64,000 bases of DNA from Methanomassiliicoccales archaeon (GTDB lineage: Archaea; Thermoplasmatota; Thermoplasmata; Methanomassiliicoccales; UBA472): positions 135,878 through 199,877 of the forward strand of contig DAONGL010000001.1 in assembly GCA_035404085.1 (NCBI GenBank), in the 5' to 3' direction. The number at the start of each line of letters is the position of its first letter. Within the stretch, counting starts at the first letter, position 1. The position numbers and the translations under genes are program-made. The notes beneath the pieces are model-generated. The model did no database searches and was not told the origin of the DNA. It saw only the letters and a list, made by a program, of their open reading frames with translations. This document shows positions 1 to 56,144 of the stretch, in pieces.

Positions 1-597
1 TTGGGCGGAGGTGGTAGGGAGGCCAGTCGTTCCTTTGCCATAATGAGCGATGACAAGGTGGACAACCTGTTGAGCGTGGCCGGCGGAAAGCTCACCACCT
101 ATAGGCTGATGGCCGAGAAGGTCTCCGATCGGGTGTGCGAAATTCTGGGGAACGGCGCCAATTGCCGTACGCACCTGGAGAAGCTCGGGCCCGCCCCGGA
201 TCCGAAGGGAGGTTCGATCTCTTCGGCCAGGCTAAGGCGCAAGTACGGACGGGCGGCCACTTCGATAGATACCGCCGACACTCGGGTGCTGTGCTCCTGC
301 GAACAGGTCATGCGTTCCGAAGTGACGATGGTCCTGAGCAAGGGGGACGCTCTGACACTGGCCGACGTGATGCGCAGGACCCGGGCGGGAATGGGTTACT
401 GCCAGGGGTTCGACTGCTCACTTTCCGTACTGGAGGTCATGATAGAACGGAACCAGGTAGATCCTGTCCCCTCCTTGAAGGAATTCCTTGAGGAAAGGGA
501 ACGTGGCCTGACGCAAGCGACCGGCGACCAGCTGCGACAGGAGATTCTGCGCCGACACGTCCTCAGAGGCGTCTACGGGCTGGAGGGGAAGGAATGA
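1..597 (+). CDS. glpA: Anaerobic glycerol-3-phosphate dehydrogenase subunit A-like flavoprotein, C-terminal part (5' end outside window)
   Basis: ORF is open from base 1. 'VAGGKLTTYRLMAEKV' is a FAD-dehydrogenase C-terminal signature, followed by the BFD-like Cys pattern 'CSCEQV...GYCQGFDC'. The stop overlaps the next start (ATGA, 594-597). Confidence 0.7.
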   Translation: MGGGGREASRSFAIMSDDKVDNLLSVAGGKLTTYRLMAEKVSDRVCEILGNGANCRTHLEKLGPAPDPKGGSISSARLRRKYGRAATSIDTADTRVLCSCEQVMRSEVTMVLSKGDALTLADVMRRTRAGMGYCQGFDCSLSVLEVMIERNQVDPVPSLKEFLEERERGLTQATGDQLRQEILRRHVLRGVYGLEGKE

Positions 598-1643
598 ACC
601 GCGTTCTCGTGGTGGGCAAAGGGGCGGCCGGAACGTTCTCCTCCTGGCTCTTGGCGAACAAGGGTTGGGAGGTCATCCTGGTGGGCCGGGGGACCCCGAG
701 CACCGCCATGTCCACTGGCTGCCTGAGGTCCCAACCGAACGTTTGCCGTTCGGAGATCATGGAGTTTCTGAACAACGAAATGATGCCCTGGACCTACGGA
801 TCTAGGGAAGGCATGAGCAAGATAGGAACGTCATACCGATGCTGGATGTCCCCGCCCCATTCCACCTGGAAGGAAGGTGAGGCGCCAAAGAGCGTCGCGG
901 TGGTCGGTCTGGAGGGACATCCATCTCTGCAGGCGCGCGTAGCCTCGGCCACGCTGAACGCCCGGGGCATCAGGGCGGAGTCGCTCATATTGCCGAGCTC
1001 GGTCCCCTCGGATGTTCCCCTGGCCGCCTCTTTATTCAGTGACGAATCCTGGGAGACGTTGGCCGACGAATTGCAAAGACAATCGGCCGAAGCGATACTG
1101 CTCCCGGCCATGGTCGCTCTGGAAGACTATCACCAGCTGGACATACTGGAGCTTCGCAGTGGAAGGAGAGTGTTGGAGGCGATCACTCCCCTGAGCGCGC
1201 CAGGTCAGAGGCTGGGGGATATCATGCGTTCGAAGGCCGCAGGGTCAGGGGTAACCATCTGGGACGGTAGGAAAGTAACCGCTCTCGATGTACGGGACGG
1301 CGAGGTGCGCGGAGCGACGGTCGCCGGAGGTCAAGAGGTCCGCGATATCTTGATCGATGCGGTCATTATCGCCACCGGGGGCCCCCTGGTCGATGGGCTG
1401 GCTCTCAAGGAACGGAATATCAGCGATCCCTTTGGTATGTTCCAGGTCGTTCGATCCAACGACGGGCTCAGAGGCGGTTACGATAGCTCGAACGGCATGC
1501 TGATCGCCAGCGATGGTCACCCAATGAACAACGTCGCCGGCGCCGGGGACTGCCTTTCTTCGGAACGCAGGGAATACGGCTCCGGGTTGACCGAGGCCCT
1601 GGAGGGCGCGTATCTTGCCGTCCAGGCACTGGAGGGATCATGA
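594..1643 (+). CDS. glpB: GlpB-like FAD-binding subunit of anaerobic glycerol-3-phosphate dehydrogenase
   Basis: N-terminal dinucleotide-binding fold 'VLVVGKGAAGTFSSWLLANKGWEV' and C-terminal 'AGAGDC'. It has 4-nt start/stop overlaps with both neighbours, indicating operon coupling. Confidence 0.55.
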   Translation: MNRVLVVGKGAAGTFSSWLLANKGWEVILVGRGTPSTAMSTGCLRSQPNVCRSEIMEFLNNEMMPWTYGSREGMSKIGTSYRCWMSPPHSTWKEGEAPKSVAVVGLEGHPSLQARVASATLNARGIRAESLILPSSVPSDVPLAASLFSDESWETLADELQRQSAEAILLPAMVALEDYHQLDILELRSGRRVLEAITPLSAPGQRLGDIMRSKAAGSGVTIWDGRKVTALDVRDGEVRGATVAGGQEVRDILIDAVIIATGGPLVDGLALKERNISDPFGMFQVVRSNDGLRGGYDSSNGMLIASDGHPMNNVAGAGDCLSSERREYGSGLTEALEGAYLAVQALEGS

Positions 1644-2623
1644 ACGAAGGCCGGTGCGTCAAGTGCGGCAGCTGCCTGCGGGTATGCCCGGTTCTCAACG
1701 ATCTCTCAGGTTCGCCATTCCCAGGACCACGAACCGTGGGAGTGGACGCCCCCCGGTTCTTGGAGAGAGAAAGCGTCGGCCACAACGCTCTGCGCTGCAC
1801 CATGTGCCATGCCTGCGAGTGGGCCTGCCCCTCCGGGATCACCCTCACCCGCTCCATGTTAAAGCTCAGGTCGGGGATGTCCGGTGAACGTTTGCCCGGT
1901 CATCGCCGGATGCTCGAGAACATATCCTCGTTCGGGCGATCGGTCAATACGGAGTTCAGTGGCTGGATAGAGAAAGGGAATCGTACCCTGTACTTCCCAG
2001 GATGCATCGGTCTCGGTCGTTCCGCGGACCTCACGAGAACGGTGTCTTCCCTCCTAACTTCGCTAGGGATAGAGCACGATATCTCGAGCCAGGTCCTGTG
2101 CTGCGGTTCTCCACTTCTGAAGATCGGGGCCACAGAGGTGGCCGAGGACCTCCGCCGCCGGAACACAGAGGCGCTCTCGCGGTACGACCGAGTGATCACC
2201 TCCTGCCCCGGCTGCACGTATCAGCTCCGGGAGTTCTACGGGATCGAGGCCGAGCATGTAATAGAGGTCCTGAAGGGCTTGGACCTGCGTTCCAAGCTGG
2301 AAGGCCGCTGGGCGCTACAGATTCCTTGTCACCTGAGGCGGGGCCTCAGTCCCTGGGCCGCCGAGGACCTGATAATTATTCTGGAGAATGCCGGTGTGGA
2401 CATCGTCAGGATGCCCCAGGAGGACAGCTGCTGCGGCGGCGGGGGAGGCATGCTATCCGGCTTTCCGGAAACGTCCGGCTCCATCGCCCGCCACAAGGTC
2501 GATATGTACCGCCGGGCCGAGGTGGACGGCGTGATAACTGCCTGCCCCTTCTGCTCCCTGAACCTGGGAAGGGAAGGCCTCAAGGTCCTGGACATCACCG
2601 AGGCTATTACGCTGAACAAATAG
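1640..2623 (+). CDS. glpC: GlpC-like iron-sulfur subunit (two [4Fe-4S] ferredoxin motifs plus two CCG domains)
   Basis: Cluster motifs 'CVKCGSCLRVCP' and 'CTMCHACEWACP'. 'CCGSPL' and 'CCGGGGG' are CCG-domain motifs as in GlpC/HdrD/LutA-type proteins. Confidence 0.7.
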   Translation: MNEGRCVKCGSCLRVCPVLNDLSGSPFPGPRTVGVDAPRFLERESVGHNALRCTMCHACEWACPSGITLTRSMLKLRSGMSGERLPGHRRMLENISSFGRSVNTEFSGWIEKGNRTLYFPGCIGLGRSADLTRTVSSLLTSLGIEHDISSQVLCCGSPLLKIGATEVAEDLRRRNTEALSRYDRVITSCPGCTYQLREFYGIEAEHVIEVLKGLDLRSKLEGRWALQIPCHLRRGLSPWAAEDLIIILENAGVDIVRMPQEDSCCGGGGGMLSGFPETSGSIARHKVDMYRRAEVDGVITACPFCSLNLGREGLKVLDITEAITLNK

Positions 2624-3557: not shown

Positions 3558-5063
3558 TCACACCAGCGGGGTCAGGGACACGCACCCTCCCTGGGGTCTT
3601 TCCTCTACCGTCAATGCGAAGCACTCGGTGAACGGTTTACTGCCGTAGAGCACCACCGTCCCGCCTATCCTCTCCACCTTCAAGTGCACCGTGGCCAGAT
3701 CGGCCAGCCTTGCCGTGGATCGGGATGTCGGGGAGGTCAGTCCCACGAACGACCCTCCATTGCGCTTGACCGCGGCGAGATGATCGATCAGTCCCTCCAT
3801 GACCTCTCCGCCGTAAATCGATTCCAGGGAATCGAACCCCATCAGCGAGAGGAACGGTTGTGAGCTGCCATTCAGAGCGTAAACGATGTTCTTCCACTTC
3901 AGGTCGTCCGATACCCTGGTCCCTTCGACGGCCATGACGTAACGTCCGCTTCCCTGGTCCATCTGGGAGGCCGGTTCCACGACCCGAACCGTCTTCTCCA
4001 TCTCTCCGTCCGTCAAAACGTTCTGCAGCATCCCCCTGGCTCCCGCCCCGCTCTCCTTTCGCAAAGGCACCCACAGCACCCCGCGCCCGGCCTTGGCAAA
4101 GCTGGAGACCAACGACCTCTCCAATATCCCACTGACCAACGGGGGAAGCCCGCCGCCCAGCTCGATGAGCGTCACCGCTCCCGGGAAGAGGCCCCCAGTC
4201 ATTTCGTCCAGATCGGTTATCCCGAACGAGAGATGGCCCGCAGGGTCCTCCGGTCTGGCGAACTCATTGCTCATCCCGCTGCCCCGGTCCCACTTGGCTC
4301 CGAAGCAGCGGAACTTGCCGCCCTTCAAACTGAAAAGATAGAGGGGCTGCTGAACCTCCACCCCTCGCAGCTTCATAAGGTCCATCTCTCGCACCAATCG
4401 CCGCTCGTGCTCCATCCGCGTGCACTCCACGACCCCGTCTCCCAGGTAATCGAGCATGTGGTCGTTGTTCTCCAGGACGAAGAGCAGGTTCGCCCCCTGG
4501 CCTTCCACCAGGTCGCGTTGCAGGGCGATCATCAGTTCCCGGCACTGTAGTTCGTATCGGTCTGCCAGAGCGTCGATGCTGTCGATGATGACCAGCACCC
4601 GTTCCCCGGCCTTCTCCACCAGGTCATACAGGTTCTCCAGGTCGGGCATGGTCCGGCCGATGGAGACGGTCATCTCCTTCCGGGACACCAACAGATCGCC
4701 GGAGCCCACGCCCTTCAATCGTCCGAAGCCGGAACGGCGACGGGTACTGGTCTCCTCCCTGGTTATCAAACGGTCGGCAAGCCAGGGAAACTGCCTTAGC
4801 AGGGACGAATCGGATACCCTGGTCGAAAGATAGTGTGCCCTCTGCCGGTCCTTGAACTCCTCCGCCACCTGCAGAACGAAGGTGGTCTTCCCGGTCCCGG
4901 CGTTCCCCCGCACGATGAGGGAATGCCCTCCCGGGTTCTCGAGGAATCTCGTGATCTCATTGGGCAACGCGGAATTGGAGGGGTCGGGCATCTGCTGAAC
5001 CTTGTCCGCTTGACCCCTCTCGATTTTTAAACAACTTTCCTCCCCATTATCATTTATCGCCAA
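3558..5063 (-). CDS. Two-domain KaiC/GvpD-like RecA-superfamily ATPase
   Basis: Domain 1 has an intact P-loop, 'SLIVRGNAGTGKTTFVLQ', and Walker B 'VLVIIDSIDAL'. Domain 2, 'GITDLDEMTGGLFPGAVTLIELGGGLPPLV', has the KaiC/RadA-like entry motif but no GKT. Confidence 0.7.
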   Translation of the reverse strand: MAINDNGEESCLKIERGQADKVQQMPDPSNSALPNEITRFLENPGGHSLIVRGNAGTGKTTFVLQVAEEFKDRQRAHYLSTRVSDSSLLRQFPWLADRLITREETSTRRRSGFGRLKGVGSGDLLVSRKEMTVSIGRTMPDLENLYDLVEKAGERVLVIIDSIDALADRYELQCRELMIALQRDLVEGQGANLLFVLENNDHMLDYLGDGVVECTRMEHERRLVREMDLMKLRGVEVQQPLYLFSLKGGKFRCFGAKWDRGSGMSNEFARPEDPAGHLSFGITDLDEMTGGLFPGAVTLIELGGGLPPLVSGILERSLVSSFAKAGRGVLWVPLRKESGAGARGMLQNVLTDGEMEKTVRVVEPASQMDQGSGRYVMAVEGTRVSDDLKWKNIVYALNGSSQPFLSLMGFDSLESIYGGEVMEGLIDHLAAVKRNGGSFVGLTSPTSRSTARLADLATVHLKVERIGGTVVLYGSKPFTECFALTVEERPQGGCVSLTPLV

Positions 5064-5126: not shown

Positions 5127-6317
5127 ATGAAAGCTGTCATTCTGGCCGCCGGGGAGGGGACCAGGCTCCGTCCGTTCACCGTATCCAGGCCCAAGGTCAT
5201 GATTCCCATCGGCAACCGACCTATCCTGGAATATGTCGTTCGAGCCTTGGCGGCGAACGGCATAACCGAGATCATCCTGGTCGTGGGCTACATGAAGGAG
5301 CGCATAATGTCCTTCTTCGGGAACGGCTCACGCTTCGGGGTCAAGATATCCTATTCCATCCAAGAGAAACAGCTGGGTACCGCCCACGCCACTCTGGCGG
5401 TCCGAAGCCAGATCAAGGACGACTTCATATTGGTGGCCGGGGACAACATCATCGACGCCCAGGTCATCGCCGACCTCCTGAACCACAAGGGTGGCCTGGC
5501 CATGCTGGTGACCGATTCCGAGATCCCCTCCAAGTATGGGGTCGTCCAGATCGAGTCCGGTCAGGTGGTGGACATCATCGAGAAGCCCGACAAGAAGGTG
5601 GGCAACATCATCAACACCGGCATCTACCGATTACCGCCCACCATATTCGATCACCTGGAGAAGGGGATCATGGCCGGAAAGTCCGGGATCACTCACGTTC
5701 TGCACAGCTGCATGCCTCGTCTGAAGGTGGACGCGGTCCGTTCCACCGGTCGTTGGATGGACGCCGTCTACCCATGGGACCTCATCCGTTTGAACGAGTA
5801 TGCCTTCAGCCTATCGGGTCAGGAGACATCGGGTACCATCGAGTCCGGGGTTACCATGCGCGGGCCGGTGTACGTGGGGGCCGGCACCAGGATCCGAGCT
5901 GGCTGCTACATCGAGGGACCGGTGTCCATCGGCGAGGGTTGCGAGATAGGTCCGTACGTGACGATATTTCCGACCACCAGCATAGGCAACGGGGTGCACA
6001 TCGCTCCTTACACCTACATCAACAATTCCATGATCATGAACAACGTCTCCATAGGTTCCCATGCCCACATATCCCGGGCGGTGATCGACGACGGATGCCG
6101 GATAATGACCGGCTTCTCCGCGCCATCTGGCCTGGCCCAGGTCAGGGTGGAGGACGATTTCTTCAAGGTGGAGAAGGCCGGCAGCATGGTCGGGGAGTTC
6201 ACTCAGATAGGTCCTCAGGTGGTGCTGTCCGCCGGAACCATCATCGGGGCCAACTCACGAGTTGGCGACGGCGCCAAGGTCAGCGGAACGTTGGAGAACA
6301 GGAGCCTCGTGGTCTGA
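5127..6317 (+). CDS. Bifunctional sugar-1-phosphate nucleotidylyltransferase / acetyltransferase (archaeal GlmU-like)
   Basis: 'MKAVILAAGEGTRLRPFTVSRPKVMIP' is the nucleotidyltransferase signature. The C-terminal third is hexapeptide (left-handed beta-helix) repeats. The stop overlaps the glmS start (TGATG). Confidence 0.8.
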   Translation: MKAVILAAGEGTRLRPFTVSRPKVMIPIGNRPILEYVVRALAANGITEIILVVGYMKERIMSFFGNGSRFGVKISYSIQEKQLGTAHATLAVRSQIKDDFILVAGDNIIDAQVIADLLNHKGGLAMLVTDSEIPSKYGVVQIESGQVVDIIEKPDKKVGNIINTGIYRLPPTIFDHLEKGIMAGKSGITHVLHSCMPRLKVDAVRSTGRWMDAVYPWDLIRLNEYAFSLSGQETSGTIESGVTMRGPVYVGAGTRIRAGCYIEGPVSIGEGCEIGPYVTIFPTTSIGNGVHIAPYTYINNSMIMNNVSIGSHAHISRAVIDDGCRIMTGFSAPSGLAQVRVEDDFFKVEKAGSMVGEFTQIGPQVVLSAGTIIGANSRVGDGAKVSGTLENRSLVV

Positions 6318-8113: not shown

Positions 8114-9103
8114 TCACACCAGCTTCTCTGGGCAGGACTCTCGGCGGGAGCAGCTGGCGCACTTGCCCGGTCGGTTGTGGTTGCGGTGCACCTCTCCGCT
8201 GCGCATCAGCTTGCGCATCTCATCCACCTTTTCTAAAAGGATCTTCTCCAGCTCGGCGTCGAACTCGATCTCATGTTCCTCGCTCCCATATAGCAGAAGA
8301 CCGTACGGAGGGCGCTTGCCCGACGATTCCGCGATGAGCAGGCAATAGGTCGCCACCTGCAATATATGCGAGAACAACGGTCCTTTCGGGGTTCGTCCGG
8401 TCTTGAGGTCTCCCGGGATCAATTGACCGTCGATCTCCAGCACGAAGTCCGGTCGGCCGCTGAGCCCGTACCTCTCCGAGAGATACAACTGCGAATCGTC
8501 CGTTCCAACGTACTTGATCTCCCCCTCCAGGCCTTCGGCGTTCATACGCTCCCCGACCTTCTGGGAGGCGGAGAGCGACAAGTAAAGGGCGAGCGAGGCG
8601 GCAATCAGCCAGACCAGCGCCAAGGCCTCCAGTATCATGGAGACCATGGGGTCGGCCTGGATGAGGTTGCCGATGTTCATAGCCACCACCATGAGGACCA
8701 GTCCAACCATCGCCACTATCTGCAATCTTCGAACTTGGATGATGGCCCTCCCTCGCAGGGCTGAAAGATAGAGCATGGCGATCACCGCCAGGAACCAGAT
8801 GATGCTCAGCAGGGGCAATATCCATCCAATGTTCACACTGCCGGCGGCCCGCATCAAGGAGATGCCGGTGACGGCCAGCACGGTCGCCACCAGCGAGAAG
8901 AGGAAGACCATCCTTTCCCAGTCCCAGGCCTTCTGTTCTATGTTCCGGATTCGGCGATATTCATCGGCCTTGTCACGGTGTGCGGCATCCCCCCTCTCCT
9001 GCTCGGGGGTGCTGGACTGGGACTTCCGTCCCAACCACCAGCTGAGCGGGCAGTACCCATACCGCTCTAAATCGCTGGCGGAGATGACCTCGGTCCGGTC
9101 CAT
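8114..9103 (-). CDS. Cas4/DUF83-like PD-(D/E)XK nuclease with four inserted transmembrane segments
   Basis: N-terminus 'ISASDLERYGYCPLSWWL'. Core motifs 'GRPDF', 'PGDLKTG' and 'QVATY'. C-terminus 'CASCSRRESC' (C-x2-C-x5-C). Four hydrophobic 20-25-aa segments occupy aa ~65-177. Confidence 0.65.
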   Translation of the reverse strand: MDRTEVISASDLERYGYCPLSWWLGRKSQSSTPEQERGDAAHRDKADEYRRIRNIEQKAWDWERMVFLFSLVATVLAVTGISLMRAAGSVNIGWILPLLSIIWFLAVIAMLYLSALRGRAIIQVRRLQIVAMVGLVLMVVAMNIGNLIQADPMVSMILEALALVWLIAASLALYLSLSASQKVGERMNAEGLEGEIKYVGTDDSQLYLSERYGLSGRPDFVLEIDGQLIPGDLKTGRTPKGPLFSHILQVATYCLLIAESSGKRPPYGLLLYGSEEHEIEFDAELEKILLEKVDEMRKLMRSGEVHRNHNRPGKCASCSRRESCPEKLV

Positions 9104-39133: not shown

Positions 39134-40486
39134 ATGGCCAGGAAGATAGTGGTTATCGGGGGAGGGGCGGCCGGCATGACCGCGGCCTCCACCGCCAGGG
39201 AGAACGGGGCTGGGGACATCACCCTCATCACCGAGGACGAACACGTGGCGTACTCGCCCTGTGCCATACCGTTCGTCGTGGAAGGCACGATAAAGGACTT
39301 CCCGAGCATTGTGATGCACACTCCCGAGTACTATCGGCGAGAGAGGGGCATCGAGGTTCTGGTAAAGACCACCGTGGACCGCGTGGACGCCGAGGCCAAG
39401 AAGGTGATCACCAAGGACGGCCGCTCCTTCGATTACGATTCTCTGGTGATAGCCACCGGCGGAACGGTGTTCGTGCCGTCCATCGAGGGACGCGAGCTGC
39501 ACGGCGTTTTCCCGGTCAGATGGATATCGGACGGGCAGGCTATAGTGGACTGGCTTCCGAGCACCACGCAGGTCGTCGTCGCCGGAGCCGGGGTTATCGG
39601 GTTGGAGATGGCCGTAGCCCTGCGGGAAAGAGGCAAGGATGTTTCGGTAATAGAGATGTTCGACCAGGTGGTCCCCCGCATCATGGACAAGGACATGGCG
39701 CAGCTGGTCCAAGCGCACTGCGAGGCGCAGGGCATCAAGTTCGTTCTCGGTTCGCCATGCTCGTGCATCGAGGGCGATGAGAAGGTCACCGGGGTCACCG
39801 CCGGCAAGACGCACATCCCCTGTCAGATGGTCATCATGGCCACCGGTGTGCGAGCGAACCTGCGCATACCCGAGCAGTTGGGGTTGGAGATCGGTCCCCT
39901 GGGCGCGGTGAGGGTAAGTCCAAGCCTGCAGCCCTACCGCAAGGGGCGCCTGGTGCCAGATATCTATCTGGCGGGTGACGTGGTCATGTGTCAGAGCGCG
40001 GTTCTAGCTGGACCGACCATGAGCCAGCTGGGTTCCACCGCCGTCCGTCAGGGGCGGGTGGCCGGAATTCGGGCCACCGGCGGCAATGCCACCTTCCCGG
40101 GGACCGCCAGTCCATATGTCAGTGTCATCGGGGGCTTGCAGGTCGGCGGAACCGGGATGTCCCGTTCGCTGGCCGAGTACTACGGGGTGAGGGTGGTAGA
40201 GTCCATGGCGAAAGGCTCGTCCCGGGCCCGGTACTATCCGGGCGGGAAGGACATGACCGTCAAGCTACTGGCGGACGCCGAGAGCGGACGTCTCATCGGC
40301 GGCCAGATCGTGGGCGGGGAGGATGTCACCGGACGGGTGAACTGGATCACCGCCGCCATACTGGAAGGTGTGACGGTCGCCTCGTTCGTGGAGAGGATGG
40401 AGAACGCCTACTGCCCCCCCACCTCCATGGTCAGCGACACGGTGAACGTGGCTGCGGAGAAGCTGGCCAGGACGCTTCGCGGCTGA
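39134..40486 (+). CDS. FAD-dependent pyridine nucleotide-disulfide oxidoreductase (NADH oxidase / CoA-disulfide reductase type)
   Basis: 'KIVVIGGGAAGMTAAS' FAD fold, single redox Cys in 'AYSPCAIPFVVEG', and a second dinucleotide fold 'VVVAGAGVIGLEMA'. Confidence 0.85.
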   Translation: MARKIVVIGGGAAGMTAASTARENGAGDITLITEDEHVAYSPCAIPFVVEGTIKDFPSIVMHTPEYYRRERGIEVLVKTTVDRVDAEAKKVITKDGRSFDYDSLVIATGGTVFVPSIEGRELHGVFPVRWISDGQAIVDWLPSTTQVVVAGAGVIGLEMAVALRERGKDVSVIEMFDQVVPRIMDKDMAQLVQAHCEAQGIKFVLGSPCSCIEGDEKVTGVTAGKTHIPCQMVIMATGVRANLRIPEQLGLEIGPLGAVRVSPSLQPYRKGRLVPDIYLAGDVVMCQSAVLAGPTMSQLGSTAVRQGRVAGIRATGGNATFPGTASPYVSVIGGLQVGGTGMSRSLAEYYGVRVVESMAKGSSRARYYPGGKDMTVKLLADAESGRLIGGQIVGGEDVTGRVNWITAAILEGVTVASFVERMENAYCPPTSMVSDTVNVAAEKLARTLRG

Positions 40487-49648: not shown

Positions 49649-49997
49649 GGACGATGGTCAAACGGATTACGGTCAAAACCCGTTTCCCATACATGCATGC
49701 TATTTCTTCCGAATAGTGAAACGATAAAAGCGAAAAGCTCTTAAACGGTAAGCAATCACGAGAACACCATGTCCTGCCTCTCGACAGAACACATAATGTT
49801 GAAATATGGACATTTTAATCCCGAAGGCACTGCTCTGTTATCAGGGATGAGATCCCTGACGTTCCAGGCTCCAGGGATAGACATTCGTGGAGGTACCCAT
49901 TCGCCTCAAGGGGGCAGGTATGCGAAGGGTAGGGGACCACGGTCCTATATTCTGGTTCGGAGTGGGGCCCTAATAGGAGGGAGAGGCAACTGAGCGG

Positions 49998-50004
49998 TTT
50001 AAAG
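49998..50004 (+). promoter_or_regulatory. TATA-like box upstream of hdrA
   Basis: 'GGTTTAAAGT'. It lies only ~16 nt before the track's TTG start at 50020, which suggests transcription starts inside that extension and that translation begins at GTG 50086 or TTG 50092, behind GGAGG (50080-50084). Confidence 0.35.
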
Positions 50005-50019
50005 TCAATATTCGGCGGA

Positions 50020-53000
50020 TTGTTCGACAAGGGATCTAAAAAGGAACAAACGGCCGAAGGATCGAAAGATGATACAAAAGGAGGAGTGAATTTGGAATCA
50101 AAAAGCGGTTCTGTTTTGGTGGTAGGGGGCGGCATCGGCGGTGTCCAGACCTCTTTGGACCTGGCTGAGTCAGGGTTCAAGGTCTACATGGTCGAGAACA
50201 AGGCCAGCATCGGCGGTGTCATGTCCCAGTTGGACAAGACCTTCCCGACCAACGATTGTTCGATGTGCATCCTGTCGCCTAAGTTAGTAGAGGCAGCGAG
50301 GCACCCCATGATCAGCATGATGACCTTGACCGAGGTCATGGGCGTTGAGGGAGAGGCCGGTAACTTCACGGTTACTTTGAAGAAGAAGCCCCGGTACGTC
50401 CGGGAGGACAGATGCGTCGGCTGCGGCCTTTGCGCGGAGAAGTGTCCGTCAAAGGTGCCCGCCGAGTACGAGCTGGGCCTGATGAACAGGAAGGCGATCT
50501 ACGTCGCTTACGCCCAGGCCGTGCCGATGAAGTACGCCATCGACGCTGACAAGTGCCTTTATCTCCAGAAGGGCAAGTGCGGGAACTGCAAGAAGGTCTG
50601 TCCCGCTGACGCCATCGACTACGAGATGAAGGAAGAGATCCAAAAGATCCACGTGGGTGCAGTGGTTCTGGCGCCTGGTTACGAGCTATTCGACGCCCGC
50701 CTGAAGAAGGAGTACGGCTACAAGGAGTTCAAGAACGTCCTGAACAGCCTGGAGTTCGAGCGGGTACTGAGCGCCACCGGTCCCTACCAGGGACACGTGG
50801 TCAGGCCGTCCGACCACCAGACCCCCAAGAAGGTCGCTTTCATCCAGTGCGTCGGTTCCAGGGACGAGAAGGTAGGAAACCCCTTCTGCTCGTCCGTCTG
50901 CTGCATGTACGCCCTGAAGCAGGCCATAATCGCCGGGGAGCATTCCACCGGTCTGAAGTCCACCATATTCTTCATGGACGTCAGGGCCTTTGGAAAGGAG
51001 TTCGAGGACTACGCCAAGAGGGCCGAGAACGAGTACGGCATCAAGATGCACCGCGGGACCCGCGTTGCCTCCGTCGATGAGACCGAGGGTAACAACCTGC
51101 TCCTGCGCTACAGCGACGGAGCAAACGTCCTGGCCGAGGAGTTCGACCTGGTCGTTCTGTCCGCCGGCTTCCAGCCTCCGGCACAGGCCAAGGCCCTGGC
51201 CGACCGCCTGGGATTCAAGCTGAACGAGTTCGGCTTCTGCGAGACCGGGGTCTACAGCCCGCTGGAGACCACCAAGAAGGGAATCTACGTCACCGGCGCC
51301 TTCAGCGCCCCCAAGGACATCCCGACCACCGTCGCTGAGGCCAGCGGCGCCGCCGCCAAGGCCGGTGCCCACGTCTTCAACAACCGCATCAGCATCGATA
51401 CCGTGGTCAAGGAGACCCCAGAGACCGATGTTGCTGGACAGGAACCCCGCATAGGGGTGTTCGTCTGCGACTGCGGCATTAACATCCGCGGGACCGTAGA
51501 CTGCCCGTCCGTCGTGGAGTATGTGAAGGCCCTGCCGAACGTGGTGTACGCCGTGGAGAACAAGTACACCTGCTCCGCCGATACTCAGGAAGCGATCAAG
51601 AAGACCATCAAGGAACACAACCTGAACCGCGTGGTAGTTGCTTCTTGCACTCCCAGGACCCACGAGGCCCTGTTCCAGAGCACCATCAAGGAGGCCGGCC
51701 TGAACCCGTTCCTCTTCGAGATGGCCAACATCCGTGACCAGTGCTCCTGGATACACATGCACGAGCCGGAGAAGGCCACCGAGAAGGCCAAGGACCTGAC
51801 CCGCATGGCGGTAGCCAAGTCCCGGTTCCTCGAGCCGTTGACCAAGTCCAAGCTGGGCGTCAACCACTCCGCCGTCGTGGTCGGCGGTGGACTGGCCGGA
51901 ATGACCGCTGCTCTGGACATAGCCGCCCAGGGATTCAAGGTCGACATCCTGGAGGTAACCGGTGCCATGGGTGGAAACTTGGCCAACCTGTACACCGACG
52001 AGGGAGGCATCTCCCCGAGGAAGTACATCAAGGACCTGGAAGCCAAGGTTCGCGCCAACCACAAGATCAGCGTGCACCTCAACACCACCGTGATGGACGT
52101 CGCCGGCTTCGTCGGCAACTTCAAGGTGAAGGTCACTGGCGATAAGGAGATCGAGACCGGAGCGATAGTCGTCGCCACCGGCGCCAAGGCCTATGTCCCG
52201 ACCGAGTACAACTACGGCAAGGACAAGAAGGTGGTAACCCAGAACGACCTGGAGAAGGCCCTCGTGGAAGGCAGCTTCCATGGCAAGAACGTGGTCATGG
52301 TCCAGTGCGTCGGTTCCAGGAACACCGAGGCGCCCTACTGTAGCCGCGTCTGCTGCTCGAAGGCGGTCAAGAACGCCATCGAGATCAAGAAAAAGGACCC
52401 CAAGGCCCAGGTCTACATCCTGCACAAGGACATCAGGACCTATGGGTTCAGGGAGACCATGTACAAGGAGGCTGGGGAGCTCGGAGTGAAGTTCATCCGC
52501 TACCCGGAGGACAAGATGCCCGAGATGACCTCGGACGGCAAGATCGTGGTCGAGGACACCGTCCTTGGCGCCCCGGTCCAACTGTCCCCCGACTGCCTCG
52601 TTCTGAGCGTAGGAATACGCCCGAACGATGACAACGAGGAGCTGGCCAAGATGTGCAAGGTGCCCCTGAGCAAGGATAAATACTTCCTTGAGGCGCACAT
52701 GAAGCTGAGGCCGGTCGACTTCGCCACCAGCGGCATATACCTGGCTGGACTGGCCCACTGGCCGAAGTTCATCGATGAGACCATCGGACAGGCTTCCGGA
52801 GCGGCCTCCAGGGCACTGACCATAATATCGAAGCAGTACCTCGAGACCCAGGGCATCATCGCCGCGGTTAACGAGATGGTGTGCAACGGTTGCGGCGTGT
52901 GCGAGCCAGTGTGCGAGTACAAGGCCATAACCATCGTGGGCGACCCCAACACTCCCGAGAGGCGCAAGGCCGTCATCAACGAAGGCCTGTGCATGGGATG

Positions 53001-53109
53001 CGGAACCTGCGTGGCCGCCTGCCCGTCCGGAGCCCTGGAGCAGAAGGGCTTCAAGAACAACCAGATCCTGGCGCAGATCGACGCCGCTCTGGTCGGAGGT
53101 GGAAAGTAA
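50020..53109 (+). CDS. hdrA: Heterodisulfide reductase subunit A-like flavoprotein, enlarged two-module form (1029 aa by track; true start possibly 50086/50092)
   Basis: Two FAD folds, 'VLVVGGGIGGVQTSLDLAESG' and 'AVVVGGGLAGMTAALDIAAQG'. HdrA hallmarks are 'FPTNDCSMCIL', 'IQCVGSRD...CSSVCC', 'VQCVGSRN...CSRVCC', and 'IGVFVCDCGINI...NIRDQCSWIH'. Four 4-Cys ferredoxin motifs (CxxCxxCxxxCP-type) are present. Confidence 0.85.
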   Translation: MFDKGSKKEQTAEGSKDDTKGGVNLESKSGSVLVVGGGIGGVQTSLDLAESGFKVYMVENKASIGGVMSQLDKTFPTNDCSMCILSPKLVEAARHPMISMMTLTEVMGVEGEAGNFTVTLKKKPRYVREDRCVGCGLCAEKCPSKVPAEYELGLMNRKAIYVAYAQAVPMKYAIDADKCLYLQKGKCGNCKKVCPADAIDYEMKEEIQKIHVGAVVLAPGYELFDARLKKEYGYKEFKNVLNSLEFERVLSATGPYQGHVVRPSDHQTPKKVAFIQCVGSRDEKVGNPFCSSVCCMYALKQAIIAGEHSTGLKSTIFFMDVRAFGKEFEDYAKRAENEYGIKMHRGTRVASVDETEGNNLLLRYSDGANVLAEEFDLVVLSAGFQPPAQAKALADRLGFKLNEFGFCETGVYSPLETTKKGIYVTGAFSAPKDIPTTVAEASGAAAKAGAHVFNNRISIDTVVKETPETDVAGQEPRIGVFVCDCGINIRGTVDCPSVVEYVKALPNVVYAVENKYTCSADTQEAIKKTIKEHNLNRVVVASCTPRTHEALFQSTIKEAGLNPFLFEMANIRDQCSWIHMHEPEKATEKAKDLTRMAVAKSRFLEPLTKSKLGVNHSAVVVGGGLAGMTAALDIAAQGFKVDILEVTGAMGGNLANLYTDEGGISPRKYIKDLEAKVRANHKISVHLNTTVMDVAGFVGNFKVKVTGDKEIETGAIVVATGAKAYVPTEYNYGKDKKVVTQNDLEKALVEGSFHGKNVVMVQCVGSRNTEAPYCSRVCCSKAVKNAIEIKKKDPKAQVYILHKDIRTYGFRETMYKEAGELGVKFIRYPEDKMPEMTSDGKIVVEDTVLGAPVQLSPDCLVLSVGIRPNDDNEELAKMCKVPLSKDKYFLEAHMKLRPVDFATSGIYLAGLAHWPKFIDETIGQASGAASRALTIISKQYLETQGIIAAVNEMVCNGCGVCEPVCEYKAITIVGDPNTPERRKAVINEGLCMGCGTCVAACPSGALEQKGFKNNQILAQIDAALVGGGK

Positions 53110-53561
53110 TGTCCAACGAAGCACAAGCCCACAGCGCTCCGGCGGAAGCCGGGGCCTGGGAACCCAACCTGTTGGTGTTCTGCTGCAACTGGTGCTCCTA
53201 CGCCGGGGCCGACCTGGCCGGAGTTTCCCGTCTTCAGATGCCGACCAACTTCCGTGTGATAAGGACCATGTGCTCCGCCAGGGTGGACCCCGAGTTCGTC
53301 CTGAGAGCCTTCGCCAAGGGAGCCGACGGCGTGCTTATCCTGGGCTGCCACCCCGCTGACTGTCACTACATCGGTGGGAACTATCGCACCAGGAGAAGGA
53401 TCGCCCTGCTCCGCGTGCTGTTGGAGCAGTATGGATTCAACCCTGACCGCTTGAAGCTGGAGTGGGTCTCCGCATCTGAGGGGATGAAGTTCCAGCAGAC
53501 CATCAAGGAGTTCAACCAGAGGATCAACGAACTGGGCACGAACCCCTTAAACGAGGAGTAA
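53109..53561 (+). CDS. mvhD: F420-non-reducing hydrogenase subunit D (MvhD)
   Basis: 'LLVFCCNWCSYAGADLAG...IRTMCSARVDPEFVLRAF..GADGVLILGCHPADCHY'. The ATG overlaps the hdrA stop (TAATG). Confidence 0.9.
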   Translation: MSNEAQAHSAPAEAGAWEPNLLVFCCNWCSYAGADLAGVSRLQMPTNFRVIRTMCSARVDPEFVLRAFAKGADGVLILGCHPADCHYIGGNYRTRRRIALLRVLLEQYGFNPDRLKLEWVSASEGMKFQQTIKEFNQRINELGTNPLNEE

Positions 53562-53586: not shown

Positions 53587-54606
53587 ATGGCAAAGATAAG
53601 GATCGCACAATATTGGGCCGCCGGATGCGGAGGCTGCGACGTCGCCCTATTGGACATTGACGAGAAGATCTTGGGTGTCGCCGAGATCGCTGACATCGTG
53701 TTCTGGCCCATCGCCGTCGATTTCAAGGTGAAGGACGTCGAGGCCATGCCCGACGGATACATCACCGCCACTCTGATCAACGGAGCGGTCAGGAACAGCG
53801 AGAACGAGCACATGGCCAAGCTGCTCAGGCAGAAGTCGGCCCTGATAGTCTCCTTCGGTTCCTGCGCCTGCTTCGGTGGAGTACCCGGACTGGCCAACGT
53901 GACCAACAAGAAGGACATCCTGGAATACGTGTACTGGAAGACCCCCAGCTCCGACAACAAGGAGCACGTTCTACCAACACCTCACTGGCACGCCCCGGAG
54001 GGTGAGCTGGAGATCCCGGTCCTATATGACACGGTCATGACCCTGGACCAGGTAATAGACGTCGACTACTTCATGCCCGGCTGCCCGCCGACCACGAACT
54101 TGATCAATGAGTTCCTGGGAATGGTGGAGAAGCACGTCAAGGAAGGCGCCCCGCTGCCCCCCAAGGGCTCCGTGATCGCTTCCCAGAAGGCCCTCTGCGA
54201 TGAATGCAACAGGACCAGGACCGTCAAGAAGGTCGACAAGATACACATGCCTTACGAGATCGACATCGATCCCGAGAAGTGCATGCTGGAGCAGGGAGTC
54301 ATCTGCCTCGGACCGTCTACCAGGGCGGGATGTGGCGCCAAGTGCCTGGAGGGCAATCAGCCCTGCCGCGGATGCATGGGACCGACCGCCGAGGTCTTGG
54401 ACCAGGGCGGGAGCATGCTGAGCGCGCTGGCCTCGATATTCGCCGTAGGCAACGACGAGGGACTGCTGAACGAGGACGACATTCTGGAGATGATGGCCCA
54501 GGTCAAGGACCCGCTCGGAACGTTCTACGCGTTCACCATGCCTGCATCGATCATCAAACGTAAGGTTAAGGAAAAGACAGCTACCACTGCTTCCAAGGAG
54601 GTCTGA
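53587..54606 (+). CDS. mvhG: F420-non-reducing [NiFe] hydrogenase small subunit (MvhG)
   Basis: 'IAQYWAAGCGGCDVALLD' proximal-cluster motif, 'FGSCACFGG', 'GCPP', and C-terminal Cys clusters. An SD 'GGAGG' lies upstream. Confidence 0.9.
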   Translation: MAKIRIAQYWAAGCGGCDVALLDIDEKILGVAEIADIVFWPIAVDFKVKDVEAMPDGYITATLINGAVRNSENEHMAKLLRQKSALIVSFGSCACFGGVPGLANVTNKKDILEYVYWKTPSSDNKEHVLPTPHWHAPEGELEIPVLYDTVMTLDQVIDVDYFMPGCPPTTNLINEFLGMVEKHVKEGAPLPPKGSVIASQKALCDECNRTRTVKKVDKIHMPYEIDIDPEKCMLEQGVICLGPSTRAGCGAKCLEGNQPCRGCMGPTAEVLDQGGSMLSALASIFAVGNDEGLLNEDDILEMMAQVKDPLGTFYAFTMPASIIKRKVKEKTATTASKEV

Positions 54607-54611
54607 ATCTA

Positions 54612-56144
54612 ATGTGCCCTATACTGATGGGTCAGGGAACTGACAAGGTTGAGAAGACCACCGAGAAGCGGATCACCATTGACCCCCTCACCCGGTTGGA
54701 AGGCCACGGTAAGATCGAGATCTTCCTGGACGACGACGGGAATGTGGCAAATGCCTACTGGCAGGTGCCCGAGCTCAGGGGATTCGAGAAGTTCTGCATC
54801 GGTCGGTCCGTAGACGAACTGAACAAGCTGACCTCCAGACTTTGCGGTGTGTGCCCCGGCGCCCACCACATCTGTTCGACCAAGGCGTTGGACCACGTGT
54901 TCGGCGTCGAACCCCCGGAGACCGCCAAGAAGCTGCGTGAGCTGTTCTACATGGCTCACTACGTCCACAGCCACATCGCTCACTTCTACGCCCTGGCCGC
55001 CGCGGACTTCGTCCTCGGCCCCGGTGCCCCGAAGGCCGAGAGGAACATCCTCGGCGTGGTTGGAGCTGTAGGATTGGAGATCGGCGGAGAGGTCATCAAG
55101 AACCGCTCCTACGCTCAGAAGATCCAGGAGATGCTCGGCGGAAAGGCTACCCACCCGGTCATAGGTATCCCGGGCGGTGTCGCCAAGAGCATCAACGAGG
55201 ACGAGAGGGCCAAGATCGAGGCCATGGCCAAGTCCTGCGTCGAGTTCGGAAAGTTCACCAACCAGCTGTTCGCTGACGTGGTACTGAAGAACCAGGACTA
55301 CCTGAACCTGATCGTCAACAAGGACGTCTACTACCACGAGACCTACTACCTCGGTACCGTGGACAAGAACGGCAAGAACAACTTCTACGACGGTGACCAG
55401 GTCATGATCTCCCCCACTGGGGAAGAGGTCGCCAGGTACCGCGAGGGCGGCAGGGATTACCTGAAGTACATCGCCGAGCACACTCTGCCCTGGTCGTACG
55501 AGAAGTTCTGTTACTTCAAGCCGGTCGGCTGGAAGGGACTGGTGGACGGGAAGGACAGCGGGATCTACCGCGCCACCCCGCTCTCCAGGCTCAACGTCAC
55601 CAAGGGTTTCACCACCCCGCTGGCGCAGGCCGAGTTCGAGAAGTACCACGGGACCTTCCGCGATCTAGGCGTCAAGGGACCAGTGCACTTCACCATGGCC
55701 ACCCACTGGGCCCGCGTGATCGAGATGCTCTACGCCGCCGAGAGGCTGCTGGAGCTGTCCCAGGACCCCGAGATCACCGGCAAGCACGTACGCAACCCGG
55801 TGAAGGAGGCTGGCGAGGGAGTCGGTATACTGGAGGCCCCGCGCGGCACCCTGGTGCACCACTACGTCGCGGACAAGAACGGCATAACCACCGACGTGAA
55901 CCTGGTCGTGGGAACCACCAACAACAACGGCCCCATGAACCTCAGCGTCCGCAAGGCCGCCACCGCTCTGATCAAGAACTGGAACGTGTCCGACGGTCTG
56001 CTGAACGCCGTGGAGATGGCCTATCGCGCCTACGACCCGTGCAACAGCTGCGCCACGCACACCTTGCCTGGTCAGATGCCGATGGACGCCGTTATCAGGC
56101 GCGCCGACGGTTCGGTCTACAAGACCGTGTCCCGCAACTACTAA
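54612..56144 (+). CDS. mvhA: F420-non-reducing [NiFe] hydrogenase large subunit (MvhA)
   Basis: 'RLEGHGKIEIF', N-terminal Ni-Fe ligands 'RLCGVCPGAHH', and C-terminal 'DPCNSCATH' followed by a cleavable tail. Confidence 0.93.
   Translation: MCPILMGQGTDKVEKTTEKRITIDPLTRLEGHGKIEIFLDDDGNVANAYWQVPELRGFEKFCIGRSVDELNKLTSRLCGVCPGAHHICSTKALDHVFGVEPPETAKKLRELFYMAHYVHSHIAHFYALAAADFVLGPGAPKAERNILGVVGAVGLEIGGEVIKNRSYAQKIQEMLGGKATHPVIGIPGGVAKSINEDERAKIEAMAKSCVEFGKFTNQLFADVVLKNQDYLNLIVNKDVYYHETYYLGTVDKNGKNNFYDGDQVMISPTGEEVARYREGGRDYLKYIAEHTLPWSYEKFCYFKPVGWKGLVDGKDSGIYRATPLSRLNVTKGFTTPLAQAEFEKYHGTFRDLGVKGPVHFTMATHWARVIEMLYAAERLLELSQDPEITGKHVRNPVKEAGEGVGILEAPRGTLVHHYVADKNGITTDVNLVVGTTNNNGPMNLSVRKAATALIKNWNVSDGLLNAVEMAYRAYDPCNSCATHTLPGQMPMDAVIRRADGSVYKTVSRNY

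Follow-up and report, generated by a model that had tools for sequence, protein, structure and literature searches.

A long type II HdrA of a Methanomassiliicoccales archaeon with two unequal flavin cores, probably a pseudo-dimer in one chain

The gene analysed here is a long hdrA, coding for subunit A of heterodisulfide reductase (HdrA), in a stretch of 64,000 nucleotides from a Methanomassiliicoccales archaeon (GenBank assembly GCA_035404085.1, contig DAONGL010000001.1, positions 135,878 to 199,877 of the forward strand; hereafter the window, whose numbering is used throughout). Its product carries two HdrA-type flavin cores in one polypeptide, confirmed as a single open reading frame (ORF) on independent contigs. 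The accessory elements of HdrA are split between the two halves in a strictly complementary way, each chain having a single N-terminal domain, Cys pair, inserted ferredoxin and C-terminal ferredoxin. The gene is almost certainly an ordinary type II hdrA of the Methanomassiliicoccales, whose architecture is published and widespread, and is the expected hdrA at the expected place beside mvhDGA. We consider it likely that two old HdrA paralogues were fused head to tail in a gene co-transcribed with mvhD-mvhG-mvhA, and that the product is a pseudo-dimer with one circuit operating in trans. The initial annotation of this DNA, made from the sequence alone, had proposed a covalently fused, asymmetric pseudo-dimer. 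This reading is supported by the HdrA-type sequence and predicted fold of both halves, by their complementarity and by the occurrence of the halves as split genes elsewhere.

The ORF at 50020..53109 (+ strand) is present. The motifs quoted for it in the initial annotation lie at about the residues given there, and the order of modules agrees with that annotation. Position 50020 is merely the first possible start codon of the frame. The product is most likely 1005 amino acids (aa) long, and not 1029 as first reported, because a GGAGG sequence (50080-50084) lies seven bases 5' of a TTG codon at 50092, because gene callers identified the identical 1005-aa product on 7 contigs (from several NCBI, ENA and Logan sample sources) and because this product agrees with the N-termini of homologues (consensus MxxKxGAVMVVGGG). 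The start at 50020 was dropped on the same grounds. Residue numbers below refer to the 1005-aa product; numbering from the 50020 ORF is obtained by adding 24. A frameshift or misassembly joining two genes would also yield a long ORF, and other lineages do have genuinely split genes, but no other support for an artefact was found. The identical protein on 7 contigs, at least 116 clusters of about 1000 aa at 60-99% identity and colinear single-ORF homologues in dozens of complete or draft genomes refute it, leaving this explanation a negligible probability. The 440-nt stretch 5' of the gene (49649-50091) is non-coding and matches no Rfam family.

Conservation was assessed in two sets of homologues, 117 close homologues and 86 fused homologues from Archaea and Bacteria. 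The gene and its parts, aligned with the canonical HdrA of Protein Data Bank (PDB) entry 5ODC, are:

50092..53109, + strand: hdrA, long (type II) form, 1005 aa, TTG start, TAA stop
50092..51381, + strand: module 1, HdrA thioredoxin-reductase-type flavin core, aligning with 5ODC HdrA 146-567, without N-terminal domain and without C-terminal ferredoxin
50257..50268, + strand: Cys56-Ser-Met-Cys59 (ORF residues 80-83), equivalent to Cys194/Cys197 of 5ODC HdrA, in module 1 only
50386..50637, + strand: inserted 2x[4Fe-4S] ferredoxin, aligning with 5ODC 237-315, its eight Cys present and invariant in both homologue sets
50848..50904, + strand: four-Cys cluster motif of HA4 type (C253, C266, C270, C271), with Lys276 just after
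51367..51438, + strand: linker between modules, poorly conserved (consensus mostly 'x'), where separate-gene versions end and restart
51439..51825, + strand: HdrA N-terminal-type domain, internal, heading module 2, 70% identical to 5ODC HdrA 2-130
51865..52839, + strand: module 2 flavin core, keeping GxGxxG, the beta-2 Glu, the GG motif and C739/C750/C754/C755, without Cys pair and without inserted ferredoxin
52867..53049, + strand: C-terminal 2x[4Fe-4S] ferredoxin, aligning with 5ODC 568-648 (50% identity; Pfam Fer4/Fer4_7)

The layout is therefore a core with inserted ferredoxin, an N-terminal domain, a core lacking the insert and a C-terminal ferredoxin. When searched with phmmer against PDB chains, the whole protein matched 5odc_A (E=2e-216) in three stretches: ORF residues 32-389 with HdrA 146-500 (core and inserted ferredoxin), 474-628 with HdrA 2-156 (N-terminal domain into the start of the flavin core) and 844-1022 with HdrA 473-648 (core end and C-terminal ferredoxin). 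ORF residues 619-935 also matched 6tjr_A, an HdrA-like flavoprotein of Hyphomicrobium (1e-34). Pfam detected two Pyr_redox_2/NAD_binding_8 regions and three Fer4 regions. Both halves were also aligned with 5ODC, whose sequence had been reconstructed from the phmmer alignments; in this three-way alignment module 1 spans HdrA 146-567, while module 2 comprises HdrA 1-145, a core without pair and insert, and the C-terminal ferredoxin. The same alignment bears out the earlier statement that the second core lacks the DCSMC element and the inserted ferredoxin. It likewise confirms that neither half is a complete HdrA, the complementary elements being invariant in the 117 close homologues.

The flavin core of module 1 is 45% identical to that of 5ODC (a value computed without the inserted ferredoxin) and that of module 2 is 42% identical. 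Both modules are HdrA-type cores by sequence and by predicted fold. The two cores share 31% identity with each other. The N-terminal domain is 70% and each ferredoxin domain 50% identical to its 5ODC counterpart. A circular permutation of one HdrA was ruled out because the chain has two flavin cores that are both complete, GxGxxG and four-Cys motif included. The element order of canonical one-chain HdrA is not kept and the curated family scores are not reached: the NCBIfam HdrA models give 739 bits against a cut-off of 1400 and 684 against 1300, and the HdrA2 model 1005 against 1100. The top NCBIfam models of the two halves taken separately are nevertheless HdrA/HdrA2, with 505 and 512 bits.

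The invariant residues outline the cofactor sites. In module 1, C56 and C59 are invariant in the 117 close homologues; at position 59 the 86 distant fused homologues have Cys (48), selenocysteine (37) or an alignment gap (1). The cluster Cys, E223 and K276 of module 1 are 100% conserved in both sets. In the second half, the N-terminal-domain residues C459, C461, C494, C519 and C551 are invariant in the close homologues, four N-terminal-domain Cys being so across both sets, and C739, C750, C754, C755 and the eight Cys of the C-terminal ferredoxin are also invariant in the close set. Both cores have retained the motifs for binding flavin adenine dinucleotide (FAD), namely GxGxxG, the GG motif and the beta-2 Glu. 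The GxGxxG, beta-2 Glu and four cluster Cys of module 2 are found in 86/86 fused homologues. Together, the invariant Cys and motifs suggest that each chain has two FAD sites and seven sites for clusters. The inserted and the C-terminal ferredoxin would hold two clusters each, and the N-terminal domain and either flavin core one each. The second motif of the inserted ferredoxin, CLYLQKGKCGNCKKVC, reads C-x7-C-x2-C-x3-C (50554-50604, Q155-Q171, ORF 179-195). Canonical 5ODC HdrA has C-x2-C-x2-C-x3-C there, whereas the window protein carries a five-residue insertion after the first Cys; none of the four Cys varies in either homologue set.

The solved Mvh-, Elp- and Fdh-Hdr complexes operate in trans, and recent electron cryo-microscopy of Elp-Hdr and Mvh-Hdr-Fmd described such a mechanism in canonical HdrA (PMC12350162, PMC13580544). 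In the partner HdrA', the conserved Cys pair and the bifurcating FAD' are approached by the MvhD [2Fe-2S], which an arm carries into their vicinity. Of the two electrons, the high-potential one exits via HA4' to HdrBC; the low-potential one moves first to HA3, a shuttle cluster of the arm, and then to HA5'/HA6' in the partner's inserted ferredoxin (PMC12350162, PMC13580544). In the window protein, the two flavin cores would pack together inside one chain like the protomers of the canonical homodimer. Module 2 would act as the arm, its N-terminal domain and C-terminal ferredoxin docking MvhD, and module 1 would provide the Cys pair, the bifurcating FAD', HA4' and HA5'/HA6' of the inserted ferredoxin. 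Exactly one trans circuit would be kept and the reciprocal one deleted, which would explain the complementary losses. The module 2 flavin core appears to bind FAD and a [4Fe-4S] cluster and would probably serve as a scaffold or relay, not as a second bifurcation site.

Residue K409 and its positioning partner E356 tune the bifurcating flavin of HdrA (PMC12054007). Their equivalents in the window protein are E223 and K276 in module 1 and E721 and K760 in module 2. Conservation of the E356 and K409 equivalents differs between the modules as follows:

117 close homologues: module 1, E356 equivalent 100% and K409 equivalent 100%; module 2, 79% and 88%
86 fused homologues: module 1, E356 equivalent 86/86 and K409 equivalent 86/86; module 2, 53/86 and 64/86

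The D546 equivalent is found in 85/86 sequences of the fused set in module 1 and is not conserved in module 2. Module 1 combines the Cys194/Cys197 pair with both tuning residues, while module 2 has no pair and its residues vary. This invariance in module 1 against variability in module 2 agrees with the deletion of the reciprocal circuit and favours a single bifurcating circuit. On the complementary losses and these conservation patterns we moderately favour one such circuit per chain with the module 2 flavin core as a scaffold or relay, and we lean, with a little less confidence, towards the more specific proposal that the module 1 flavin alone bifurcates, module 2 being a conserved FAD/cluster scaffold or relay freed of the tuning constraint.

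The main competing explanation is that both flavin cores bifurcate, giving two bifurcation/confurcation reactions per chain (PMC12054007). It is consistent with the GxGxxG, beta-2 Glu, GG motif and four invariant cluster Cys of module 2 and with the presence of E721 and K760 in the window protein, both tuning residues having been reported as retained (PMC12054007). Module 2, however, has neither inserted ferredoxin nor Cys pair, and module 1 lacks the terminal domains that would serve a module 2 flavin in trans; the module 2 flavin is thereby left without evident input or low-potential output. Taken with the variability of its E356/K409 equivalents (53/86, 64/86), this makes two bifurcating sites per chain appear unlikely to us. 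Several points weigh against the single-circuit pseudo-dimer itself. Module 2 keeps every FAD-binding motif and an invariant four-Cys cluster, plus E721/K760 in the window protein; both type II cores are said to retain E356/K409, from which two bifurcation reactions were suggested (PMC12054007); and type II HdrA is without any biochemistry to date (PMC12054007). The domain identities, their complementary distribution, the conservation, the operon context and the taxonomic spread are observed here, while we infer the geometry of the pseudo-dimer, its single active circuit and the role of the module 2 flavin. In this geometry, module 1 would pack on module 2 as in the HdrA homodimer, with Cys59 approaching the N-terminal domain. 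The putative link of the long HdrA to HdrB/HdrC rests on the literature, since no hdrBC was found among the scanned ORFs of the window. If the single-circuit reading is true, the long HdrAs would amount to HdrA dimers that occur naturally with a single circuit, each chain having one Mvh arm, which would contradict the suggestion of two bifurcation sites for type II HdrA (PMC12054007). They would then also offer a simpler, asymmetric system in which to study how the trans mechanism works and what the Cys/Sec (cysteine or selenocysteine) pair does.

The whole chain was modelled with AlphaFold2 from a 64-sequence alignment. The model is one confidently packed body (mean predicted local distance difference test, pLDDT, of 83; predicted template modelling score, pTM, of 0.85) with low-confidence loops at 44-56, 550-555 and 872-879. 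Foldseek matches, with template modelling (TM) scores normalised by target length, were:

5odh_A, full HdrA chain: TM 0.75 over 653 columns, identity 40%
8rwn_A, core-only HdrA chain, matching module 1: TM 0.93, identity 44%
6tjr_A, HdrA-like flavoprotein: TM 0.85, identity 28%

No solved Hdr structure from the Methanomassiliicoccales came up in a literature search. The model bears on a further possibility, a dimer of pseudo-dimers in which a second chain would supply the missing parts of the module 2 circuit. Canonical HdrA is an obligate dimer (PMC9012536) and two long paralogues stand in tandem in some genomes (see below), both of which would suit such an assembly. The strict one-of-each complement is, on the contrary, what intramolecular pairing predicts, the whole-chain model is compact at the pTM given above, and split versions consist of one module-1 gene and one module-2 gene. 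We hold this arrangement to be quite improbable.

Long HdrAs are not confined to the window. The 120 best clusters of the protein search share 60-99% identity with the window protein; 116 of them measure 980-1070 aa, the others being partial, and the named ones are Methanomassiliicoccales 'CoB-CoM heterodisulfide reductase iron-sulfur subunit A family protein'. The survey of HdrA lengths called for in the initial annotation thus shows the form of about 1000 aa in at least 116 clusters at these identities. A scan of one genome per species found at least 599 candidate stretches encoding a relative, from which 80 loci (L followed by a number) with tblastn matches covering most of the query were retained. 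In most of the 80, query residues of about 5-1000 are colinear in one reading frame at 46-56% identity (phmmer). Archaeal carriers include members of the Thermoplasmata, Bathyarchaeia, Archaeoglobi, Methanoperedens, ANME-2, Methanimicrococcus, Asgard archaea and Nitrososphaeria; bacterial carriers include members of the Desulfobacterales, Syntrophobacterales, Dehalococcoidia, Geobacter, Planctomycetota, Desulforudis and others. Among the loci examined, mvhD lies directly downstream in nearly all lineages.

The modules are encoded separately at 10 loci, where a module-1-like gene of 431-458 aa stands immediately before a module-2-like gene of 555-772 aa (lengths from stop to stop): L007 (1994-5158), L036 (1054-4233), L032 (2210-5218), L044 (2203-5218), L012, L008, L025, L039, L051 and L068. 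The split halves carry the same feature sets as the fused modules, and MvhD matches are nearby at most of the 10 loci. Adjacent separate genes in the same order imply that the modules can be separate polypeptides that must associate. The genes are parted by genuine TGA, TAG or TAA stops and ATG restarts, and, judging from these sequences, one stop-codon change would convert the split into the fused form or the reverse. Read-through by selenocysteine (Sec) or pyrrolysine behind the split versions was ruled out, since the TGA, TAG and TAA stops are followed by Shine-Dalgarno-like sequences and ATG restarts. The split pair is often beside a fused copy at the same locus.

A different interruption affects 39 loci, mostly of Desulfobacterota, in which the long hdrA is broken precisely at the Cys59 codon; the stop is TGA in 39/39 (loci L014, L015, L019, L023, L025, L028, L030, L034, L037 and L057 (position 6160-6162) are among them). 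An mvhD with an in-frame TGA at the codon for Cys80 of the window MvhD occurs in 22 loci. This looks like selenocysteine at the HdrA Cys59 and MvhD Cys80 positions, and selenocysteine use in HdrA and MvhD is already known. The TGA/Sec at Cys59 singles out the Cys197 position of module 1 as central to function. Full-length long hdrA paralogues in tandem were observed in L006 (4661-7795 and 8569-11580; uncultured Methanomassiliicoccus sp.), L012, L016, L018, L027 and L063, with MvhD matches behind each copy in L006, L012, L018 and L027 and just one in L016 and L063. Some genomes therefore hold two complete type II HdrA/MvhD sets.

The initial annotation had raised the possibility that long HdrAs were already annotated in related genomes, and they are indeed the standard documented form of the lineage. 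Borrel and colleagues (2014) described a Methanomassiliicoccales HdrA that exceeds those of other methanogens in length, has two predicted FAD-binding sites and is encoded apart from hdrBC, beside mvhDGA, hdrBC being elsewhere in these genomes; a gene of the window type is the only annotated hdrA in this methanogen lineage (PMC4153887). Their HdrA shares family, lineage and mvhDGA context with the window protein and nothing substantive differs. Note that three 4Fe-4S centres were counted from motifs in that paper, as compared to the seven sites that the invariant Cys suggest here (PMC4153887). Chadwick and colleagues (2022) reported tandem and fused HdrAs with complementary loss of the N-terminal domain and Cys197, and proposed fused HdrAs to be their own heterodimer partners (PMC9012536). 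The name type II HdrA was defined from 176 sequences in a 2025 survey, where the idea of a pseudo-heterodimer also appears (PMC12054007), and a survey of archaeal gene fusion and fission also lists duplicated-HdrA fusions (PMC11237513).

Type II HdrA, HdrA3/HdrA4 of ANME archaea and HdrA of Moorella thermoacetica all have, like the window protein, two cores per chain with complementary features, and the ANME-2 and Methanoperedens homologues are colinear with it. Three differences from the published accounts were found. The wording of PMC9012536 places the N-terminal domain, without Cys197, in the N-terminal half, whereas the Cys-pair half comes first in the window protein. The Cys-pair half is also first in the Methanoperedens/ANME-2 loci L026, L036 and L042, which may differ from the HdrA3/4 genes of that paper. 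Both cores keep E356/K409 according to PMC12054007, while the second-core equivalents are variable here. Finally, the context is mvhDGA, as opposed to the cluster with FdhB and a molybdopterin protein stressed for type II HdrA (PMC12054007). The N-terminal half resembles class A6, without N-terminal domain and without C-terminal ferredoxin. The halves may descend from distinct type I classes, the N-half being A6-like and the C-half A12-like; they share 31% identity with each other and 42-45% with canonical HdrA, and separate A6-like and module-2-like genes are adjacent at the 10 split loci.

Canonical HdrA (5ODC; relatives 8RVU, 7BKB and 9SW6) shares all five structural elements, MvhD and the [NiFe] hydrogenase with the window protein. 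The source of 5ODC is Methanothermococcus thermolithotrophicus according to the PDB label and M. wolfeii according to PMC9012536. Canonical HdrA is a chain of about 650 aa forming a homodimer with two symmetric circuits, whereas the window chain has about 1005 aa, unequal cores and single accessory copies. HdrA2 of Methanosarcina is the top NCBIfam model for the whole window protein and for each half; it has one core with fused MvhD, in contrast to the two cores and the separate, translationally coupled mvhD gene of the window.

QmoA and QmoB are two non-identical HdrA-like flavoproteins presumed to pair. The initial annotation offered a QmoA/QmoB-like fusion as an alternative, and a Qmo-type module would act outside heterodisulfide reduction. 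Conceptually the QmoA/QmoB pair is similar to module 1 plus module 2. The Qmo subunits of sulfate reducers are separate proteins in a qmoC/apr context with another physiological partner, and QmoB carries a fused MvhD-like domain. Here the neighbours are mvhD, mvhG and mvhA rather than qmoC, aprAB and sat, both halves score best against HdrA/HdrA2 models (505 and 512 bits, as above), and the host is a methanogen whose lineage has this gene type as its only annotated hdrA (PMC4153887). The likeness to Qmo is an analogy alone; the Qmo identity was set aside on context (no qmoC, aprAB or sat; MvhD a separate gene) and NCBIfam scores, and such a function is very improbable.

What goes slightly beyond the cited papers is the unequal conservation of tuning residues between the cores, the position of the Cys-pair half first and the breadth of split/fused and Cys/Sec variation. 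Two-core HdrAs, fused and split, are very widespread in anaerobic Archaea and Bacteria and hold one copy of each element of the trans path; this one-of-each set makes them a good natural test of what a single bifurcation event requires. Modest leads for such work are that E356/K409 are conserved to different degrees in the two cores and that Cys alternates with Sec at the Cys197 position.

The genes downstream of hdrA are:

53109..53561, + strand: mvhD (FlpD family, 150 aa), its ATG overlapping the hdrA TAA stop by one base (TAATG)
53587..54606, + strand: mvhG-type [NiFe]-hydrogenase small subunit, Pfam Oxidored_q6
54612..56144, + strand: mvhA-type [NiFe]-hydrogenase large subunit, Pfam NiFeSe_Hases

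The gene order hdrA-mvhD-mvhG-mvhA on one strand points, on genomic grounds, to a partnership of the long HdrA with MvhD and the [NiFe] hydrogenase. The succession hdrA, FlpD/MvhD, small subunit and large subunit is seen at each displayed locus of the 7 contigs, and MvhD scores 187 bits against the C-terminal MvhD part of the HdrA2 model. The genes 5' of hdrA lie on the opposite strand and are housekeeping genes for a zinc-ribbon protein, FtsZ, the proteasome alpha subunit, SBDS and exosome subunits. Neither hdrB nor hdrC turned up among the ORFs of the window that were scanned against Pfam, several smaller ORFs being outside the scan. RNA features were found nowhere in the window with ARAGORN and Rfam. 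Scans for sigma-70 promoters and terminators gave nothing above shuffled sequences, the models being bacterial and uninformative for an archaeon.

A few other genes of the window were recorded. A GvpD/KaiC-type P-loop ATPase is encoded at 3558-5060 (- strand), and a PD-(D/E)XK (Cas4-like) nuclease at 8114-9100 (- strand), with no cas genes nearby among the scanned ORFs. At 1-2620 (+ strand), a three-gene cluster resembles anaerobic glycerol-3-phosphate dehydrogenase, all its scores being under curated cut-offs. It comprises the C-terminal part of GlpA (1-594), a weakly GlpB-like flavoprotein (594-1640) and a 327-aa protein (1640-2620) with a ferredoxin dicluster and two CCG domains, whose best match is TfrB, followed by GlpC and HdrB. 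This 327-aa protein is an HdrD-like subunit and the sole CCG-domain protein found in the window. A 450-aa pyridine-nucleotide-disulfide oxidoreductase (39134-40483, + strand; best match CoA-disulfide reductase, 301 bits against a cut-off of 579), a flavin disulfide reductase, sits about 10 kb upstream of hdrA.

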